Below, piece by piece: positions 5,039 to 32,000 of a stretch of 32,000 bases of DNA; positions within the stretch are counted from its first letter, which is position 1; every line of letters starts with the position of its first letter. Both the position numbers and the translations under genes were made by a program. The stretch is from assembly GCA_016933055.1 (NCBI GenBank), contig JAFGBS010000001.1, positions 30,001-62,000 on the forward strand, in the 5' to 3' direction. Under the pieces are notes generated by a model. It saw nothing but the letters and a program-made list of their open reading frames with translations, made no database searches and was not told the DNA's origin. Origin of the DNA: Promethearchaeota archaeon (GTDB lineage Archaea > Asgardarchaeota > Lokiarchaeia > Sigyniarchaeales > Promethearchaeaceae).

Positions 5039-6109
5039 TTAATCTTCAGAAGCTCCGAAAAAGAACATTAAGAAAAATACTATATTATAGATTAACGCTG
5101 AAATTATAATACTCCAATTTTGAATTGCTTTTTGTAATGTTGGGTTCCCCGTGAAATATAGGGTAACTAAATTCAATCCCATTAAAATGACTGTTAAAAT
5201 ATATCCGATTAAATACCTGCGAAATTCAGGTTGGGATCGACCCCTAGTAATATTAACAATGGTTACAAATAGCACAATACCAAGCCCTATCCAATATATT
5301 ACTAGCATTAATATCCGTAATGATTGGATATCGTAAATATATTCCAAGATTTCGATAGTAATAAATAAGGCAAACAAAAAGAATTCTACAACTCTAACCC
5401 AACCAATCCGAATATCTTCACGTTCCGCTTTTATTTCAGCTTGCTCATATTCAGAGACACCTAATTTAACTAAAATTATTAGAGATCCAATGGTCAAAGC
5501 TGTTGCTAATGACATTGATATTCGGTAAAGAATTTCTAAGTAATTGGTTTGATAGTAATCGAAAATTGCAATAGACAAGAAGTAAATATCTTGATAAGTG
5601 GCAATTGCTAGAAAGATCGGAAAAACAGCAAAAATTGCCATTACAATATAGGTAATTTTTGGAACCTTCTCTTGCTCATCCCAATCATGTCCTATTGTTG
5701 AAATACGAAAACCAAAGGAAGCAAATGCTAAAATGCATATAATGGGGGTTATAAAGGGTACCACAATTCCTAAAAATACGACCATTGCAGTAATACCATA
5801 ATATATTTTATAACGGCGGGGGATAACTCGGAAGGATGCATCTACTTTGTCTATTGTGTCAGATATGCGATTAGCAAACAATAAAATCATGAATATCCAT
5901 CCAATTGTGAAACTAATAGGAGTTGCCCACCTCATGAAAATACTATTTTCAAGTGCAGGCACAAATGAAAAATTAAATTGATCTTTATATGCAAAATAGA
6001 GCAAGAAAAACACGGTAGGAATAAGAATTAATGCTAGCACTACTAATAATCGACTTAATTTGAACTCTCTTTTTCCTATTGTACGGTTCCCGTACTGTTT
6101 TAAACCCAT
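5039..6109 (-). CDS. Hypothetical multi-pass membrane protein (about 9-10 TM)
   Basis: 356-aa ORF with ATG start and 9-10 hydrophobic segments; no recognisable family motif. Confidence 0.8.
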   Translation of the reverse strand: MGLKQYGNRTIGKREFKLSRLLVVLALILIPTVFFLLYFAYKDQFNFSFVPALENSIFMRWATPISFTIGWIFMILLFANRISDTIDKVDASFRVIPRRYKIYYGITAMVVFLGIVVPFITPIICILAFASFGFRISTIGHDWDEQEKVPKITYIVMAIFAVFPIFLAIATYQDIYFLSIAIFDYYQTNYLEILYRISMSLATALTIGSLIILVKLGVSEYEQAEIKAEREDIRIGWVRVVEFFLFALFITIEILEYIYDIQSLRILMLVIYWIGLGIVLFVTIVNITRGRSQPEFRRYLIGYILTVILMGLNLVTLYFTGNPTLQKAIQNWSIIISALIYNIVFFLMFFFGASED

Positions 6110-6285
6110 TTGTCATTATACCTCGTTTTCAATTTTAAATCAATTAATATATATCATATATACCCCCTATGCTATAAAATTAAACCGTAGAATTTCTTTT
6201 TTATACAATTATTTTTAAGCTATCACGATCTGTTTTATGTGTTATATAGACTCAAAATTTGAAAATAGATAATTTGGTTAAGAAA

Positions 6286-7143
6286 ATGATTCGAGATTTC
6301 TTCATAGTCGATTTGCACACTAAAAAGAGATTTCATAAATCATTTTCTAAAGAGCCTACTTCTGAAAGTATTGTGAAATCCTTTTTATTAAAATATACCA
6401 AAGAATTTGAAAACACAAGTAATGCTGTTAAAGCTATTAAAATTATTCCTATAAAGGAGTTTATGTTCACGTTTTTGGTGAAAAAGGGATTTATTTTTAT
6501 GATTATATCAGATATTCATGACTCCAAAAAAGATTTGGAACTTGTCCTCCAAAAAGTCGTACATTCTTTATCTCATTTTGATTTACACGAACCTATACCA
6601 AAGGACCACCAAGAGGAGTTAGGAGTAATAATAACAAGAGATTTGTTCTCGCAGATCAAGATAGCTCTGATTGGAAAGGATAATGTAGGTAAATCTACCA
6701 TATTTAATCAATTGGAAGGGGAAATTTCATATCCCCATTCAAAACGAGTTATGAGATCGAAACATATTTTTTCTGAAACCACTGAACCCAGCGTATACTT
6801 ACTTGATTATATAGGAACTGAGGATTATTCCCCCCAATGGCCCAATCTTTTGAGAGGAATACATATAATTTTCATTGTAGTAGATAGTACAGTAGAGAAT
6901 GTGCTATCTACTAAACGATTATTCATTAATCTAATAAAACGGGCAAAACCAGATGCTTTACTACTGGGAATCGCAAATAAACAAGACCAAGCGAAAGCTT
7001 TAGATGCTAAACTCATTCAAAAAATGTTAGATATTGATGCAGTGTTCCCTCTTTCGATGGACAACTTAACTAATACCTCTGCACTGGAAAACATTTTTCT
7101 TCATGCGGTCCAAACTTATCTTGCCCAATTTTTAGATGACTAG
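6286..7143 (+). CDS. Longin-like domain fused to an Arf/Arl-like small GTPase domain
   Basis: Longin-like N-terminus (MIRDFFIVD...FTFLVKKGFIFMIISD). G1 GKDNVGKS, G3-like DYIGTE, IFIVVDST, G4 NKQD. ATG at 6286 preferred over TTG at 6259. Confidence 0.75.
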   Translation: MIRDFFIVDLHTKKRFHKSFSKEPTSESIVKSFLLKYTKEFENTSNAVKAIKIIPIKEFMFTFLVKKGFIFMIISDIHDSKKDLELVLQKVVHSLSHFDLHEPIPKDHQEELGVIITRDLFSQIKIALIGKDNVGKSTIFNQLEGEISYPHSKRVMRSKHIFSETTEPSVYLLDYIGTEDYSPQWPNLLRGIHIIFIVVDSTVENVLSTKRLFINLIKRAKPDALLLGIANKQDQAKALDAKLIQKMLDIDAVFPLSMDNLTNTSALENIFLHAVQTYLAQFLDD

Positions 7144-7249: not shown

Positions 7250-7972
7250 ATGGGTCTTCGCGAATTGGAAAAAAAAATGAAAATCAAAGAAGCAATGCAA
7301 CGAAAAAATGCTGAGTATAAGCTAAAGGAGATAGAAAACCAAGCGAAAATCCAAAAGATGACCAAAGCTAGGTTGAAAGAAATTGCACGAAAACACGGTG
7401 TTTTAATTGCACTGGATGAATCTCTCAAAGAAGAAGTGGAAGCACTAAAAAAAGATTATAACATCAAAGAATCCAACATAATACGGGAAATTTTAACCGA
7501 AGATGACGTCCTTCCAGGAGATGTACATAATATTATCCATGAACAGTTGGGTATGCTGGCTTACCAACGTGTTATGCTACAAAAAGGGGAGACCGGTGGC
7601 TTACTTCTGTTGACAGATGTATTCGAATTGGTTAATACAGGGATCTTAAACGGCCGAATCACCATTGATGATGTTAAAAAGGCAGTAACCATCCTAAAAA
7701 AGAAAAAAGTGATCCCACAAATTACTATGCTCGATGAAGATGTAATGTTAATAAGTTTCTTCCCCGTGCAATATACTCAAGATCAATCGGAAATTTTGAA
7801 TTTTGCCAAAAATAATAAGGGTACTTGCTCCTTAGCTGAAGTACGCGCAAAACTAGGCTGGTCTGAGATCCGAGCATTACGAGCATTAGAAAATTTGGAA
7901 AACACAGGAATTGCTAAAACCGATGAAAGTTTTCGCACCGGAAAACGATGGTTTTTTCCAAGTCTAAAGTAG
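7250..7972 (+). CDS. ESCRT-II Vps22/Vps36-like (EAP30 domain) protein
   Basis: N-terminal helical region, then GGLLLLTDVF...ITIDDVKKAVTILK and QSEILNFAKNNKG...LGWSEIRALRALENLENTGIA...WFFPSL. These parallel the tandem winged helices of SNF8/Vps22 as I recall them. Confidence 0.85.
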   Translation: MGLRELEKKMKIKEAMQRKNAEYKLKEIENQAKIQKMTKARLKEIARKHGVLIALDESLKEEVEALKKDYNIKESNIIREILTEDDVLPGDVHNIIHEQLGMLAYQRVMLQKGETGGLLLLTDVFELVNTGILNGRITIDDVKKAVTILKKKKVIPQITMLDEDVMLISFFPVQYTQDQSEILNFAKNNKGTCSLAEVRAKLGWSEIRALRALENLENTGIAKTDESFRTGKRWFFPSLK

Positions 7973-26024: not shown

Positions 26025-26384
26025 TTAAAAAATATCTACATTTTCGGGATCAAGATTTTCGTTTAATTTACCCCTATTTTTTAACCAATTAGCTTGTGTT
26101 CCAGTATATCTCCAGATAATCATGCATTTCTCGCGCTTCTCTTTCTTTTTGGTTTCAAATTCCCATGGAGTGACTAATACTAAATCACCCAGTCTAACCC
26201 ACATACGTTTTCGAATTTTCCCGCGGATAATACCTACTCGTATAACCCCATCCTCGCATTTCACTAACATGCGGTCTCCACCGAAATTCTCTATGATTAT
26301 TGCATACATTTCCCCGTTTTCTCGGTTAGCGTATCGTATTTTTCGTTGATCGGTTCCTGTCTGATTACTTTTTTTTCCTGGCAT
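26025..26384 (-). CDS. eif1a: Translation initiation factor aIF-1A
   Basis: FGGDRMLVKCEDG...IRGKIRKRMWVRLGDLVLVTPWEF...IIWRYT. Confidence 0.96.
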   Translation of the reverse strand: MPGKKSNQTGTDQRKIRYANRENGEMYAIIIENFGGDRMLVKCEDGVIRVGIIRGKIRKRMWVRLGDLVLVTPWEFETKKKEKREKCMIIWRYTGTQANWLKNRGKLNENLDPENVDIF

Positions 26385-26448: not shown

Positions 26449-27225
26449 TCACATCATGAATTTAGCCCAGTCATCATCTTCCTCTTCTTCATCCTCTTCT
26501 TCCTCTTCATCTTCTTGATCCAAAAATTCATCTTCTTCTTCCACTTCTTCTTCCCCCTCCTCTGAGAATGAGAATGTGTCATCCGTGGAGTGACCTATCT
26601 CCTCTGCAACCATTACTCGTGCGGGTTCTTCTTGTGTGATTGATTCAATAGCTTGAACTCCCTCCTCCGGAGGAACCTCCTCCTCTTCTTGAAGAACATA
26701 TTCTGTCACCGCTTTCTTTTGTTTTTCAATCAATCGCAAGTGATCAGCGTGTTTTTTGACCGTGATGTTACTTGCCTCCCCATCCCCGATTAACCTGAGG
26801 GTAACTTCTTCTTTAGTCTCCTTTTTAGGCATTGTAATAACTTGGGCTTTCTTGTCTTTGAAAAAACCTTCCACAATCTCTACTATATCACCCTCTTCTA
26901 TTATATTTACAATCCGTTCGGGTTTAATTATGTGTTCTATTTCATCCAAAGGAATTGAACCTACTACTTTTCCTCGGACATGGGGAACACCATTAGTAAT
27001 GAGGATTACATCCCTCTGATGGATTGCTTCAATGAAAACATATCCTCGAAATTTTACATCAGCTGTTAAAATAGCTTTTAGATCAGGTACAGGATGTATC
27101 GTTCGCAATCGATTAAATATTAAATCTTGTACTGTTTTTTCCCGTCCAATGGTCGTCCTTACGGCAAATATAGTAGTTTGTGTGCTTTGACTGGTTTGTG
27201 CACCTTCTGATGACTTTTCACTCAC
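26449..27225 (-). CDS. spt5: Transcription elongation factor Spt5 (NGN + KOW) with a long acidic C-terminal tail
   Basis: IFAVRTTIGRE, RGYVFIEA, VPHVRG, EEGDIVEIVEGFFKD KOW motif; GTG start with GAAGGA upstream. Confidence 0.92.
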   Translation of the reverse strand: MSEKSSEGAQTSQSTQTTIFAVRTTIGREKTVQDLIFNRLRTIHPVPDLKAILTADVKFRGYVFIEAIHQRDVILITNGVPHVRGKVVGSIPLDEIEHIIKPERIVNIIEEGDIVEIVEGFFKDKKAQVITMPKKETKEEVTLRLIGDGEASNITVKKHADHLRLIEKQKKAVTEYVLQEEEEVPPEEGVQAIESITQEEPARVMVAEEIGHSTDDTFSFSEEGEEEVEEEDEFLDQEDEEEEEDEEEEDDDWAKFMM

Positions 27226-27364: not shown

Positions 27365-28114
27365 ATGATTTTCAGTTTTTTTATCATGCGATCAACCGGA
27401 GAAACAATTTTCGTTGATGATTGTCGTACCGATTTTAATGTACCCCTCCTTTCGGGTTTTATTAGTGCTCTTTTTTCTTTTTTAGATAAAGCACTTCACA
27501 CAACCGATATTTTTTCACTGGATGTAGCATTACTTCGATTTATTTTTTCCACCTCGGAAATTGGGAATTCCACATATTATTTTGTGTTATTAGTACAACG
27601 TATTGATACATTGTCGGAATATCAACCAAAACTAAATCTGGTTAAACATAAATTTATTGAGCAATATTCTGACACTCTAAAAAATTGGACAGGAGGTAAT
27701 ACTGCCATATTTGAAGGATTTCGAAAAATTCAGAGGCAGATTTTTGAAACTGTGCCTTTATCTATCCCAGAATTAATAAAAAAAGAATTAAGTGAAACAA
27801 TTAAGTACGTTTCCGACTCAAATGATAATCTTAAGGGCGTTGCGATTTTATCACCAACCGGATCTGTAATAGTTTCATCCCTTAACACACTCACACTTAT
27901 AAAAATCATTGAAATTCTTGAGGGAAGATATTATACAGGTGCAAAAACCGTTAATCAGCTTATCTCTAAAGAAGAAGAAGGGATATTAGTATTAATTGGG
28001 GGAAAGACCGTAATTCTTGCTACAATATTTGATAAAAGTACCCCGCTAGGAACTACTCTAGTGGAGAGTAAACTTCTTGCAGAATCGCTAAACAAAATCA
28101 TTGAAGACTCCTAG
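27365..28114 (+). CDS. Longin domain-roadblock/LC7 domain fusion protein
   Basis: Longin-like FFIMRSTG...LLSGFISALFSF...FIEQY...W.G...FEGF, then roadblock-like LKGVAILSPTGSVIVSS...VILATIFDKSTPLGTTL. Confidence 0.72.
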   Translation: MIFSFFIMRSTGETIFVDDCRTDFNVPLLSGFISALFSFLDKALHTTDIFSLDVALLRFIFSTSEIGNSTYYFVLLVQRIDTLSEYQPKLNLVKHKFIEQYSDTLKNWTGGNTAIFEGFRKIQRQIFETVPLSIPELIKKELSETIKYVSDSNDNLKGVAILSPTGSVIVSSLNTLTLIKIIEILEGRYYTGAKTVNQLISKEEEGILVLIGGKTVILATIFDKSTPLGTTLVESKLLAESLNKIIEDS

Positions 28115-28288
28115 AACATTATCTAGGATGTATCTAACTTGAATGGTTGGAATTTTTACATAATATTGGAGAAATTTTTTTAACGATAACACTTGTAAGA
28201 TCCATCACTAATACCTCCCTATTCAGTGGATATTAAGTAAACTTCGCAAACAATATTAAGCAGAACAACAACATATTCGGTAAATTTA

Positions 28289-29611
28289 ATGAAGCTATTG
28301 ATGACTAACATGATCAACTTGGACTGTATTTACTTTCTTCGACGCACGGATAATTTTCTACTCTTTGCAATGAATGATCTGTCGATTGAAAAATCCTACC
28401 TGCAAATAGACTATCTCCAAATTTTATCTCGATTCCGACTTAATTTCAATCGTGATCCCTCTCGTTTTCCTTCTGAGGATACCATCAATGAAATCGAAGA
28501 TGAAGAACAAAAAAGATATCTTCAAGAACAAATTCATGGTATTAATAGCTCAAACTCCAGAAAGATAGTTCCCTATTACGAAGACATGGAGAATCTGCTT
28601 TGTGGTATACCCCAAACGATAAAATTCACGGACAAGAATAAAACTTATTATTTTTATTTCATTGTAAACGCAAATGCAGTGCTGATTTGCGTCAGTAATG
28701 AATTTGATGATTCATTAAGATCAGATCTCATCCCAATCAGTCGTTGTTTTGAGCAAGAATTTCCTGTGGATAAAATTACGAAAGCTTCAGATATTTTGTA
28801 CTCCGAAAAAATCATATTCAGCTTCATAGAAAACCTTACTAAGAAAGTAATTAACCGCTATTATATACCCCATATTCCTCATTTTTTATATCCTTCAAAT
28901 AGTGTTACTCATTTACTTGTTCAGAATTCAATTAATGACGATAAAAAAATTTACAATGAGATAAAACCATTTTATGACTATTTATCCCATTCTAAACGAA
29001 ATAATATAAGTGTCTATGAACGATTATCAGTGGAGATTGATGGTATCTCGGATATCAAATCAATTGCAGAAACTACTCAATTGGATATTAATGAATTATC
29101 GCAAATTATGGTATTTTTATGGATAAAAGGTCATATAATCTTCCGGATTCCTATATTTGGGTGGAATATATTTGAACGCACCCATAAATCAAATGAATTT
29201 CTTCTAGACGGAAGTGAATCCCAAAAAGAGCTTTTAAATTTCTATGGAGGAGGTAAAATTATTTCACTTCTTTCTCGTTTTGACGGTAGAAGTACGATTG
29301 CAGAAATCCAGAAAAAAATGAATATCAATGAATTAAGATATATGCGTTATGTCTATGATCTATTGGATATGGATCTTATTCAAAAAGCAGAAATATATCC
29401 CGTTTTACGTCACATTGGACAAGAAATCGTTCCTTTGTTAGTAATTCAAGGGTTAAAACAAAAAGATTTGAAAATTATCGAAGAACTTGAGTCGCAATTT
29501 GATGGATCTAAATCTATTACAAGTGTAGCTTTAAAAATGGATGAATCTCCTGAGAAAATCAAACAAATTTTAGATAAAATCCCCGAATTTGTCCAATATA
29601 ATACTATCTAA
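28289..29611 (+). CDS. NPRL2/NPR2-like protein (longin-like N-terminus plus three winged-helix-like repeats)
   Basis: Repeats IDGISDIKSIA, FDGRSTIAEI and FDGSKSITSV; the first aligns without gaps to the NPRL2 IDG...N...L...G...N..T segment as I recall it. The start could be a slightly later ATG. Confidence 0.6.
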   Translation: MKLLMTNMINLDCIYFLRRTDNFLLFAMNDLSIEKSYLQIDYLQILSRFRLNFNRDPSRFPSEDTINEIEDEEQKRYLQEQIHGINSSNSRKIVPYYEDMENLLCGIPQTIKFTDKNKTYYFYFIVNANAVLICVSNEFDDSLRSDLIPISRCFEQEFPVDKITKASDILYSEKIIFSFIENLTKKVINRYYIPHIPHFLYPSNSVTHLLVQNSINDDKKIYNEIKPFYDYLSHSKRNNISVYERLSVEIDGISDIKSIAETTQLDINELSQIMVFLWIKGHIIFRIPIFGWNIFERTHKSNEFLLDGSESQKELLNFYGGGKIISLLSRFDGRSTIAEIQKKMNINELRYMRYVYDLLDMDLIQKAEIYPVLRHIGQEIVPLLVIQGLKQKDLKIIEELESQFDGSKSITSVALKMDESPEKIKQILDKIPEFVQYNTI

Positions 29612-29697
29612 ATTTATCCAAACAATTGAGAAATGTTTTAGAGGAATCATATCTGAGTTTTTTTATACATAATTATTAGCATTTTATGTGAGTAAAA

Positions 29698-30012
29698 ATG
29701 GCAAAGAAGCGACAAAAGACTAAGATCGAAACCCAAGTAATGCATATCAATTTGAATCATCTGCTTTCAGAGAGTGACAAATATATAAAAGATTTGGTGA
29801 GTTTTCTGGAGGAGAAAATTGATCAGTTAAAAACTACTCGAGATGGAAATCTGCTAAAATTAACCGTTCCTAAAACTCTTTCCACCCGTGATTTGCGTAC
29901 ATATCTTAAGAAATTCTTATATACTGCAGCTTTAAGTGATAAATATCGTCCTATTGCGTTGCAGACTGAGGAAAGGGGTTTCGAAATCTTCAAAAAACCA
30001 GAATATGAATAA
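29698..30012 (+). CDS. rpl22e: Ribosomal protein eL22
   Basis: Basic 104-aa protein; LSTRDLRTYLKKFLYTAALSDKYRPIA...GFEI resembles the eL22 C-terminal motif. Confidence 0.8.
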   Translation: MAKKRQKTKIETQVMHINLNHLLSESDKYIKDLVSFLEEKIDQLKTTRDGNLLKLTVPKTLSTRDLRTYLKKFLYTAALSDKYRPIALQTEERGFEIFKKPEYE

Positions 30013-31054
30013 TCCCTCTTTTTTGATCAGATTGAATCAGAAAACTCTAATCACTATTGCACTCAATTCAAGTTTACTGGAAATTCGAACATGGCCTAAA
30101 CCAGGAAATGTTCATAAAACTCAGAATTTCCTTAAGACAACTTATACGGACTTTCTCACCGCAATATATAATGGAAAATCCGTGTGGAATGATTTACTTC
30201 AAACATTAGAAAGTTCGAAAGATAACACAAGCACTATCTATGTGAAAACTTTAATGAAGGCTGTAAAACAGATGCGTTCAGTTCAATCGGGTGGTAACGT
30301 CCTACTTGGGCATTACCTTCTAAATATCCCTTTATTTATGGGCGCCTTCTATTGCATGAAGCATGAAATATTGGATGAATCACAATTTTGGAAATATATA
30401 CATGAAATTTTCAATAAATCTTCCTCACATGATACAATTGTTTTATTTAACGCGATTCGTTTAGCTCAACCGGGAGGAATGGGAACACGGAAGAAATATG
30501 ACTTATACAATCAAAACGTAGAATCAGAATTAATTAAGGATGATATAAATCTACTAAAAATATTTGAATTAAGTAAAAATTATGACACAATTAGTGAACA
30601 ATTAGTATCTAATTATAATTTTGCCCGAACAACAATCATATCCATCTTAATAAAATATCAGTCCGAATATCCCGATATGAACACAACATTTCCTAGGATT
30701 TGTTTAAACCAGATTTTACAACAAGATGTCATTGAAATTTCTGAAGATTTGAATGAATACATCGTAAGAGTATTTTTACATATCTTGTCTCAAAGAATAG
30801 ATACTCTTATTGCTAGAAAAACATCCGTATCCCAAGCAGAACAAGTGAGTAAAAAAGCAAAAAAGATCGTGGATCAATTTTCACGTGTTGCAAGAGATGA
30901 TTGGTTTGGTCTAGTACTGCAATTTGATAGTGAATTGCAGCGATTTAATGGAAAATTAAATCCTGGTACTACGGCTGACTTATTGGCCTGTTCGTTATTC
31001 ATATATCTGATTAAACAGCAATTATTCAACAAGAACCTAGTGAATTCCTTGTAA
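30005..31054 (+). CDS. CitG-family triphosphoribosyl-dephospho-CoA synthase-like protein (archaeal type)
   Basis: LLEIRTWPKPGNVH, GGNVLLG, AIRLAQPGGMG, DTLIARK, LNPGTTADL. ATG at 30005 overlaps the eL22 stop. Confidence 0.85.
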   Translation: MNNPSFLIRLNQKTLITIALNSSLLEIRTWPKPGNVHKTQNFLKTTYTDFLTAIYNGKSVWNDLLQTLESSKDNTSTIYVKTLMKAVKQMRSVQSGGNVLLGHYLLNIPLFMGAFYCMKHEILDESQFWKYIHEIFNKSSSHDTIVLFNAIRLAQPGGMGTRKKYDLYNQNVESELIKDDINLLKIFELSKNYDTISEQLVSNYNFARTTIISILIKYQSEYPDMNTTFPRICLNQILQQDVIEISEDLNEYIVRVFLHILSQRIDTLIARKTSVSQAEQVSKKAKKIVDQFSRVARDDWFGLVLQFDSELQRFNGKLNPGTTADLLACSLFIYLIKQQLFNKNLVNSL

Positions 31055-31570
31055 TTCAAGAATTCTTTTGACAATTATCTCAAAAGCCCCCATAATATTT
31101 TCTCCCGTCTTAGATGAAATTTTGATATGTTCAAATAAATTCAGGGGTTCTAAGAACTCTTGAGCATAATCATCAGGCACAGAAATATCCTCCACTCGAT
31201 CTAATTTCGTCCCCACAAACAAAATTGGCAAATTGGGATCATGCCTTCTACAGATTCCCACCCATTCTTGTAATTTGTCTAAGGTCTTCATCCTTGTTAA
31301 ATCATATAATAAAAGAGCTCCTTTCGCCCCCATTACATAACTATCCAGCATGAATCTAAAGCGTTCTTGTCCCCCAAAATCCCATAACTGTAATGAACAC
31401 TCCACGGAATTCACAGGCATATTGAGGAGGAAAAATTCAACTCCAATAGTTATCTTCGTGTCTTCAATGAATTTACCATGAACAACTCTATGGAGTAATG
31501 TTGTCTTACCTACTCCTCCAGCACCTGCAACAAGAACTTTGAAAATATATTTTTTTGTAATAATTATCAC
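31037..31570 (-). CDS. Rab-like small GTPase
   Basis: G1 GAGGVGKT, G2 TIGVEF, G3 WDFGGQERF, G4 TKLD, G5 SSKTG; no C-terminal prenylation tail; no in-frame ATG start. Confidence 0.92.
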   Translation of the reverse strand: MIIITKKYIFKVLVAGAGGVGKTTLLHRVVHGKFIEDTKITIGVEFFLLNMPVNSVECSLQLWDFGGQERFRFMLDSYVMGAKGALLLYDLTRMKTLDKLQEWVGICRRHDPNLPILFVGTKLDRVEDISVPDDYAQEFLEPLNLFEHIKISSKTGENIMGAFEIIVKRILELQGIH

Positions 31571-31800: not shown

Positions 31801-32000
31801 ATGAATCTTGTCATTCTTGATGCCAATTTTTTGTTGGTACCCTCTCAGTTTGGAGTAGACATCTATGACGAAATAAGAATGCAATTAACTGGGAGTTTTC
31901 AATTCGTCTATGTTCCGGAAGTTATAGATGAGCTTAAGAATAAACAAAATAGAAGTTCAAGTAAAAAATTTAAAAGATCCGTAGACTTAGCGCTAAAATT
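31801..32000 (+). CDS. PIN-domain protein, Fcf1/Utp24-like (5' part; runs off the window; not in the ORF track)
   Basis: Manual translation from the ATG at 31801: MNLVILDANFLLVPSQFGVDIYDEIRMQLTGSFQFVYVPEVIDELKNK..., which matches the archaeal PIN motif VILDxNFLLVPxQFxVDI...VPxVxxEL. Confidence 0.8.
   Translation, partial: MNLVILDANFLLVPSQFGVDIYDEIRMQLTGSFQFVYVPEVIDELKNKQNRSSSKKFKRSVDLALK

Follow-up and report, generated by a model that had tools for sequence, protein, structure and literature searches.

Do a longin-roadblock gene, an NPRL2-like gene and a small GTPase gene that lie close together in an Asgard archaeon form a single nutrient-sensing switch? This question is raised by a 32,000-nucleotide stretch of DNA from a Promethearchaeota archaeon (assembly GCA_016933055.1, contig JAFGBS010000001.1, positions 30,001 to 62,000), referred to here as the window, within which all coordinates are given. 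The host is a Lokiarchaeia-type Asgard archaeon whose genome (labeled G000) comprises 3.76 Mb and is 91% complete. A preliminary description of the window had proposed a proto Ragulator/GATOR-type module made up of three genes.

27365-28114, plus strand: P1, a fusion of a longin domain (residues 1-128) and a roadblock domain (136-247), 249 amino acids (aa); assigned from an AF2 model, Foldseek and VIA
28289-29611, plus strand: P2, an NPRL2/NPRL3-type protein with a remodeled longin and three winged helices, 440 aa; assigned from an AF2 model, Foldseek and a family hidden Markov model
31037-31570, minus strand: a Rab-like small GTPase, 177 aa, of a PIN-linked Promethearchaeales clade; assigned from Pfam Ras, PDB matches and a tree

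Which regulators belong to which Asgard small GTPases is an open problem, since the two are rarely encoded in a common operon (PMC10933270). This locus offers a conserved Rab-like GTPase together with two candidate regulators that have clear eukaryotic counterparts, and orthologues of all three are present in many genomes, closed ones included. Structural folds and profile searches confirmed that the two adjacent, co-oriented genes carry longin, roadblock and NPRL2-like modules. Their union with the GTPase into one module did not hold up, given the reciprocal loss of P1 and P2 among relatives, a P2 without the hallmarks of a GTPase-activating protein (GAP), and a Rab that follows the PIN gene. 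The explanation we favor, with moderate confidence, is that P1 and P2 are two separable platforms for GTPases whose genes share an old housekeeping run, instead of being parts of a single nutrient-sensing switch. Nutrient sensing by the P1/P2 locus is unsupported, and the block contains no sensor domain or sensor gene.

Distribution and gene order across Lokiarchaeia

Among 161 Lokiarchaeia genomes, an orthologue of P1 was found in about 127 and one of P2 in 16, with both present in 6; P1 occurs without P2 in about 120 of the 161 and P2 without P1 in 10. Lenient searches of three closed P2-bearing genomes yielded no longin-roadblock protein, and lenient searches of four near-complete P1-bearing genomes yielded no full-length NPRL-like protein. 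As relatives keep either P1 or P2 alone, the two are probably separate proteins and not one nutrient-sensing switch. The same division is seen at individual loci (f1, f3 and f4 are family labels and g13 a genus label within the genomes compared). All 19 of the other loci in f3 have Spt5-P1 followed by an acyl-CoA dehydrogenase or another gene, never by P2, with a Rab orthologue within about 5 kb of Spt5-P1 in 16 of the 19. In ten genomes of f1, including three closed ones, P2 adjoins Spt5 and P1 is absent, and four more assemblies have the window's rearranged layout with P2 present and P1 missing. Open reading frames of 85-97 aa occupying the P1 slot in close relatives were considered as P1 remnants and rejected, being CxxC zinc-ribbon-like; the corresponding proteins, with two CxxC motifs, lie directly upstream of P2 (L154:5684-5941 and L155:5647-5940).

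The genes that flank P1 and P2 in the window are listed below.

26025-26384, minus strand: aIF-1A, a member of the same ancestral run; Pfam eIF-1a and synteny
26449-27225, minus strand: Spt5; Pfam Spt5-NGN and synteny
29698-30012, plus strand: an eL22-like ribosomal protein; Pfam L22e (E 0.016) and synteny
30005-31054, plus strand: a CitG-family triphosphoribosyl transferase, with a likely ATG at 30005 that overlaps the eL22 stop; Pfam CitG (E 9.5e-43)
31801-32000, plus strand: a PIN_9-domain gene running beyond the window end; PIN_9 (E 9e-17)

This layout is as first described, with eL22 and the CitG-like gene co-oriented after P2, aIF-1A and Spt5 on the minus strand and divergent from P1, and a 174-bp gap between the co-oriented P1 and P2. 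Homologues indicate that P2 likely starts at Met8 (28310) instead of 28289. The GTPase lies 1.4 kb from P2 in convergent orientation, its stop overlapping that of CitG. A promoter scan with a sigma-70 model returned 17 sites against 22.9 expected, which for this bacterial model is uninformative in an archaeon.

In GCA_054386635.1, Rab, PIN, aIF-1A, Spt5, P1 and P2 all share one orientation and face CitG and eL22, and four g13 genomes have the same Rab-to-P2 order with genes inserted. The ancestral Promethearchaeales run was therefore likely Rab-PIN-aIF-1A-Spt5-P1-P2, co-oriented. The window layout is a rearranged one, in which P1-P2 lead eL22-CitG, Rab faces them and Spt5 is inverted; in most relatives Spt5 stands directly upstream of P1 or P2 and is co-oriented with it. 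The gene for eL22 was joined to P2 by the rearrangement here and is convergent in other relatives. Neither family f4 nor the other orders examined retain the block, and a search of sampled genomes beyond the order found no P1 orthologues. The preliminary description had looked to conservation of the neighborhood, which was borne out for the Rab linkage, kept at the level of the order within a housekeeping run, and not for P1 and P2, which are together in 6 of 161 genomes.

P2 is an NPRL2-type protein without GAP hallmarks

Pfam supports the genes flanking P1 and P2; on P1 and P2 themselves it detected no longin, roadblock or NPR2 domain, and single-sequence searches missed the folds too. The AF2 model of P2, built from 30 homologues, has a pLDDT of 84.6, and each of its top 15 Foldseek matches is a chain of a GATOR1 or SEA complex (E 7.6e-10 to 6.6e-5), with the next match at 5.6e-3. 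Residues 187-440 superpose on residues 168-380 of a GATOR1 subunit (NPRL2) with a VIA Z of 14.8 and a root-mean-square deviation (rmsd) of 4.1 over 193 residues. The longin-like part covers residues 8-187, and in model superposition residues 9-187 match the Sec22b longin (Z 12.8, rmsd 2.8, 124 residues). In addition, a profile of P2 and its distant paralogues retrieved human NPRL2 (E 7.5e-10) and yeast Npr2 (4.6e-4), and the Pfam family HTH_NPRL3 was found in 7 of 30 P2 family members. P2 is thus a true NPRL2/NPRL3 homologue, with homology spanning the whole protein. P2 belongs to a Spt5-linked clade of its own, found only in Promethearchaeales (SH-aLRT 99; trees here are quick searches with SH-aLRT support only and midpoint roots).

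The GP motif marks longin GAP subunits (PMC12290439). In the catalytic subunits used for comparison, NPRL2, FLCN and SMCR8, it precedes longin strand 2; within the first 60 residues it was found in none of the 30 P2 homologues. Nor does any arginine column of the P2 longin exceed 57% conservation across these homologues, so that no arginine finger of the longin GAP kind is discernible. We take the finger (Arg78) to be sited in the longin strand 4-5 loop, and by alignment and model the strand 4-5 turn of P2 is a tight hairpin without Arg. In longin-dimer platforms the GTPases sit on long helix 1 (PMC8213707), in place of which P2 has short helices and a variable insert. The longin is also the least conserved part of P2, with 20-30% identity across genera in its segments and 38-39% in the last two winged helices. 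The three winged helices are all net acidic, and the protein has an isoelectric point (pI) of 5.5.

With its GAP motifs missing, P2 looks non-catalytic, and it is probably an NPRL-type scaffold acting via its winged-helix tail. As P2 is the single full-length NPRL-like gene in the 91% complete host genome, it has no paralogous partner there. The survival of an NPRL2-type protein that has neither GAP motifs nor such a partner suggests that the winged-helix scaffold is older than the GAP chemistry of GATOR1.

P1 combines a longin and a roadblock domain

The AF2 model of P1 (pLDDT 86) shows a canonical longin and a roadblock domain. Its top Foldseek matches are Mon1-Ccz1, CPLANE and BLOC-3 chains (E 6e-8 to 3e-6), followed by a tier of Asgard roadblocks, MglB and LAMTOR2/3, while a sequence search of the PDB gave no match. 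By VIA, the two halves reach a Z of 15.4 against the VAMP7 longin and 13.7 against an MK-D1 roadblock, and Fuz_longin_1 was detected in 12 of 31 P1 homologues. In the tri-longin guanine nucleotide exchange factors (GEFs) of Rabs, the first domain, LD1, is a canonical longin and is followed by LD2, which is of the roadblock type (PMC6864590), and the order of secondary structure in the P1 model fits this definition. A third longin-type domain was not seen, as all 31 aligned P1 homologues stop after the roadblock at about 250 aa. The whole-chain match to Fuzzy (VIA Z 15.0, rmsd 6.7) only ties with single-longin matches, and the Foldseek E of 6e-8 to a tri-longin chain comes with an rmsd of 16. 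The comparison therefore establishes a common layout and not common ancestry, and the tandem may be convergent.

The roadblock half is equally close to MglB, MK-D1 roadblocks and LAMTOR2/3 (Z 12.5-13.7); being no nearer to LAMTOR than to the others, it does not single out Ragulator. Among the best conserved parts of P1 are longin helix 1 (62% pairwise identity) and roadblock helix 2 (59%), the usual dimer faces of these domains. Its sole GP, at about residue 55, lies in the strand 3-4 turn and occurs in some orthologues only. The host genome carries 16 further roadblock genes away from the locus and no paralogous partner for P1.

Paralogues of P1 sit with roadblock and MetOD1/V4R-like genes. 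A cassette of a roadblock gene, a MetOD1/V4R-like gene, a P1 paralogue and a gene of 136-140 aa belonging to no known family is conserved in three Loki families (L158:4441-6474, L164:2904-6900, L165:4649-6729 and L168:5861-8068), and its parts recall a TRAPP-like scaffold.

The neighboring GTPase is Rab-like

As had been reported, an intact small GTPase lies beside the pair; its G1-G3 motifs are invariant in 23 orthologues, with TKLD as G4 and SSK as G5. By sequence it is Rab-like and not a Rag. It matches Pfam Ras at E 6.6e-37 and Gtr1_RagA at 2.8e-4, its best PDB matches are Rab14/Rab11 (E about 1e-32), and it has a Rab-like switch II. No C-terminal (prenylation) Cys is present and, unlike in Rag, there is no roadblock tail. 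Rag-like genes are located elsewhere in the host genome. Set against the parts of GATOR1 and Ragulator, the NPRL2 homology of P2 stands, whereas P1 is at least as similar to the tri-longin Rab GEFs and the GTPase is not of the Rag type.

The window Rab and its orthologues form one clade, and by tree and loci the PIN gene is their most constant neighbor. They persist at loci lacking both P1 and P2 in G003, G007 and G018, which are incomplete metagenome-assembled genomes (MAGs). As the host genome contains 42 Rab-profile matches, we estimate that roughly 5% of gene pairs would have a GTPase within about 2 kb by chance, so that nearness alone is weak evidence.

In many f3 genomes this Rab is duplicated across the PIN gene, giving Rab-PIN-Rab (L064-L082 and L129). 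In P1-less f1 genera, Rab orthologues carry a C-terminal tail of 120-150 aa, proline-rich and then charged (L019:11663-12556, L030:4357-5328 and L031:3130-4116).

The wider NPRL-like family

Of 301 Asgard genomes, 112 encode NPRL-like proteins by a profile search. Besides the P2 clade, two Loki clades with canonical longins adjoin Rab-like genes at 10 loci (11 genes), and Loki paralogues occur at 8 further loci without an adjacent GTPase. The 10 loci are related and therefore count as about two events. They support a general link of NPRL-type proteins with Rab-like GTPases and are, as candidates, better matched regulator-GTPase pairs than the window locus; by tree, their Rabs form a clade apart from the window Rab. 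The GTPase of the host genome nearest to this clade (C17:522145) was considered as a tracker of P2 and rejected, since its presence in 36 of 41 genomes does not follow that of P2.

Canonical longin plus three-winged-helix genes stand by co-oriented Rabs at L097, L098, L100 and L102 (genomes G092, G074, G122 and G124), and on G124:C103 the Rab-NPRL unit is tandemly duplicated. Further Rab-adjacent loci are L099, L101 and L105 (G046) and L085, L092 and L094. In the last three, the NPRL-like gene is followed by two GTPases, of which the first has a degenerate P-loop and is a probable pseudoGTPase (L092:7686-8216, L094:2638-3168 and L085:2296-2829) and the second is intact and Rab-like. Longin-like proteins with a GP before strand 2 are encoded at L099:5534-6178 and L084:3357-4289; the former lies between the Rab and the NPRL-like gene and could be a catalytic partner there. 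In other Asgard classes, a longin plus two-winged-helix gene often has a longin-roadblock-two-winged-helix gene next to it in tandem, with a MinD/ParA ATPase gene after them (L084:6031-9052, L133:4702-7705, L132 and L142).

Weighing the explanations

On the view that the two proteins are separable platforms, P1 would most likely dimerize via longin helix 1 and roadblock helix 2, either with itself or with another longin or roadblock protein of the genome. By analogy with LD1-LD2 in Mon1-Ccz1, the dimer could offer a Rab-like GTPase a surface on which to dock, as a GEF or a scaffold would. P2 would be a non-catalytic scaffold with the conserved winged-helix tail as its working part, and the adjacency of the two genes would be a legacy of the old run with housekeeping genes, rearranged in the window lineage. 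The neighboring Rab is the best single candidate client, one of about 40, although its being the actual client is a tentative proposal. Several observations weigh against separability. P1 and P2 are adjacent and co-oriented in three separate lineages, they moved together in the window's rearrangement, their gap is just 49 bp in g13, and MAG incompleteness could conceal some copies of either gene. A Thorarchaeia-type protein also fuses a longin-roadblock part to the last two NPRL-type winged helices, both halves matching by profile (P0065 and P0071). A Rosetta-stone argument from this fusion was rejected as unspecific; its roadblock matches P1 at only E 0.01, like unrelated roadblocks, its longin does no better than many unrelated longins, and the genes adjoin a MinD/ParA ATPase. 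A complex prediction of P1, Rab and P2, with P2 scored, gave 0.00 against a mark of 0.32 and was not used as evidence either way.

One rival proposal has P1 and P2 paired through their longins as a heterodimer, making a proto GATOR1/Ragulator that would set the nucleotide state of the neighboring GTPase in response to nutrients. NPRL2 and NPRL3 do pair through their longins (PMC8534245), P1 and P2 are neighbors in GCA_054386635.1 and in 6 genomes from two families, and the fusion in other Asgard classes joins the same kinds of modules. The reciprocal absences, the missing GP motif and conserved arginine, the replaced helix 1 of the P2 longin, the weak roadblock match of the fusion, the Rab-like nature of the GTPase and the lack of a sensor make this heterodimer unlikely. 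Slightly less improbable is that one Rab is regulated by either P1 or P2, each acting alone, with lineages having retained one or the other. The slot after Spt5 holds P1 or P2 while the Rab orthologue stays nearby, and NPRL-like paralogues elsewhere stand directly beside Rabs. Against this, the Rab persists in three genomes that lack both genes at the locus, Rabs adjoining the canonical NPRL-like genes belong to a different clade, and the P2 longin is poorly conserved. Comparably doubtful is a further reading, in which P1 is the archaeal, two-domain equivalent of GEFs of the Mon1/Ccz1 type and activates the co-inherited Rab, with P2 as an optional partner; if true, an archaeon would have a matched GEF-Rab pair of the late-endosomal kind and would connect the Mon1-Ccz1 fold with the GATOR1 fold. 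Least probable, in our judgment, is that P2 has left GTPase signaling and that its winged helices act on nucleic acid or on the transcription and translation machinery (Spt5, aIF-1A, eL22 and PIN). Its constant place beside Spt5, the concentration of conservation in the winged helices and weak helix-turn-helix Pfam matches point that way, but the winged helices are acidic, and by structure P2 most resembles NPRL2, in which the C-terminal domains engage in protein contacts (PMC8534245), and not a transcription factor.

Other genes in the window

Other window genes include a longin-like and Arf-like GTPase fusion (6259-7143, plus strand), followed by an EAP30/Vps36 (ESCRT-II) family gene (7250-7972, plus strand). 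A weakly matching Yip1-domain membrane protein (5039-6109) is encoded divergently from the fusion gene. Farther along, after ABC transporter genes, lies a 1672-aa membrane-anchored subtilase (Peptidase_S8, DUF4350; 9064-14082, minus strand).

Comparison with known systems

No paper was found in the literature on this gene run, the P2 clade or Asgard LD1-LD2-like (tri-longin) proteins. Asgard roadblocks, longins and GTPases have been described, and it was noted that they generally do not pair up in operons (Tran et al. 2024, PMC10933270). An Asgard NPRL2-like family has been reported in most Thor and few Loki MAGs (Liu et al., bioRxiv 10.1101/2020.10.19.343400). Like P2, that family combines a longin with an NPRL2-type C-terminal domain; the P2 clade differs in being Spt5-linked and in its divergent longin, and may lie inside the asCOG of Liu et al.

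P2 has the same domain order as NPRL2/NPRL3 (yeast Npr2/Npr3) of GATOR1/SEACIT, a longin and then three winged helices, but differs from them in lacking the GP motif and a conserved arginine finger and in its remodeled longin helix 1. In contrast to the NPRL heterodimer of GATOR1, the host has one full-length NPRL copy, and the neighboring GTPase is Rab-like. The C-terminal half of P1 has the fold common to Ragulator (LAMTOR2/3), MglB and Asgard roadblocks, but is fused to a longin. Whereas Ragulator/Rag has several stand-alone roadblocks, the locus has one fused roadblock and a GTPase without a C-terminal one. As in LD1-LD2 of the tri-longin Rab GEFs (Mon1-Ccz1, HPS1-HPS4/BLOC-3 and Fuzzy-Inturned), the canonical longin of P1 precedes a roadblock, and P1 differs from them in having two domains instead of three and in standing without a paralogous partner in its genome.

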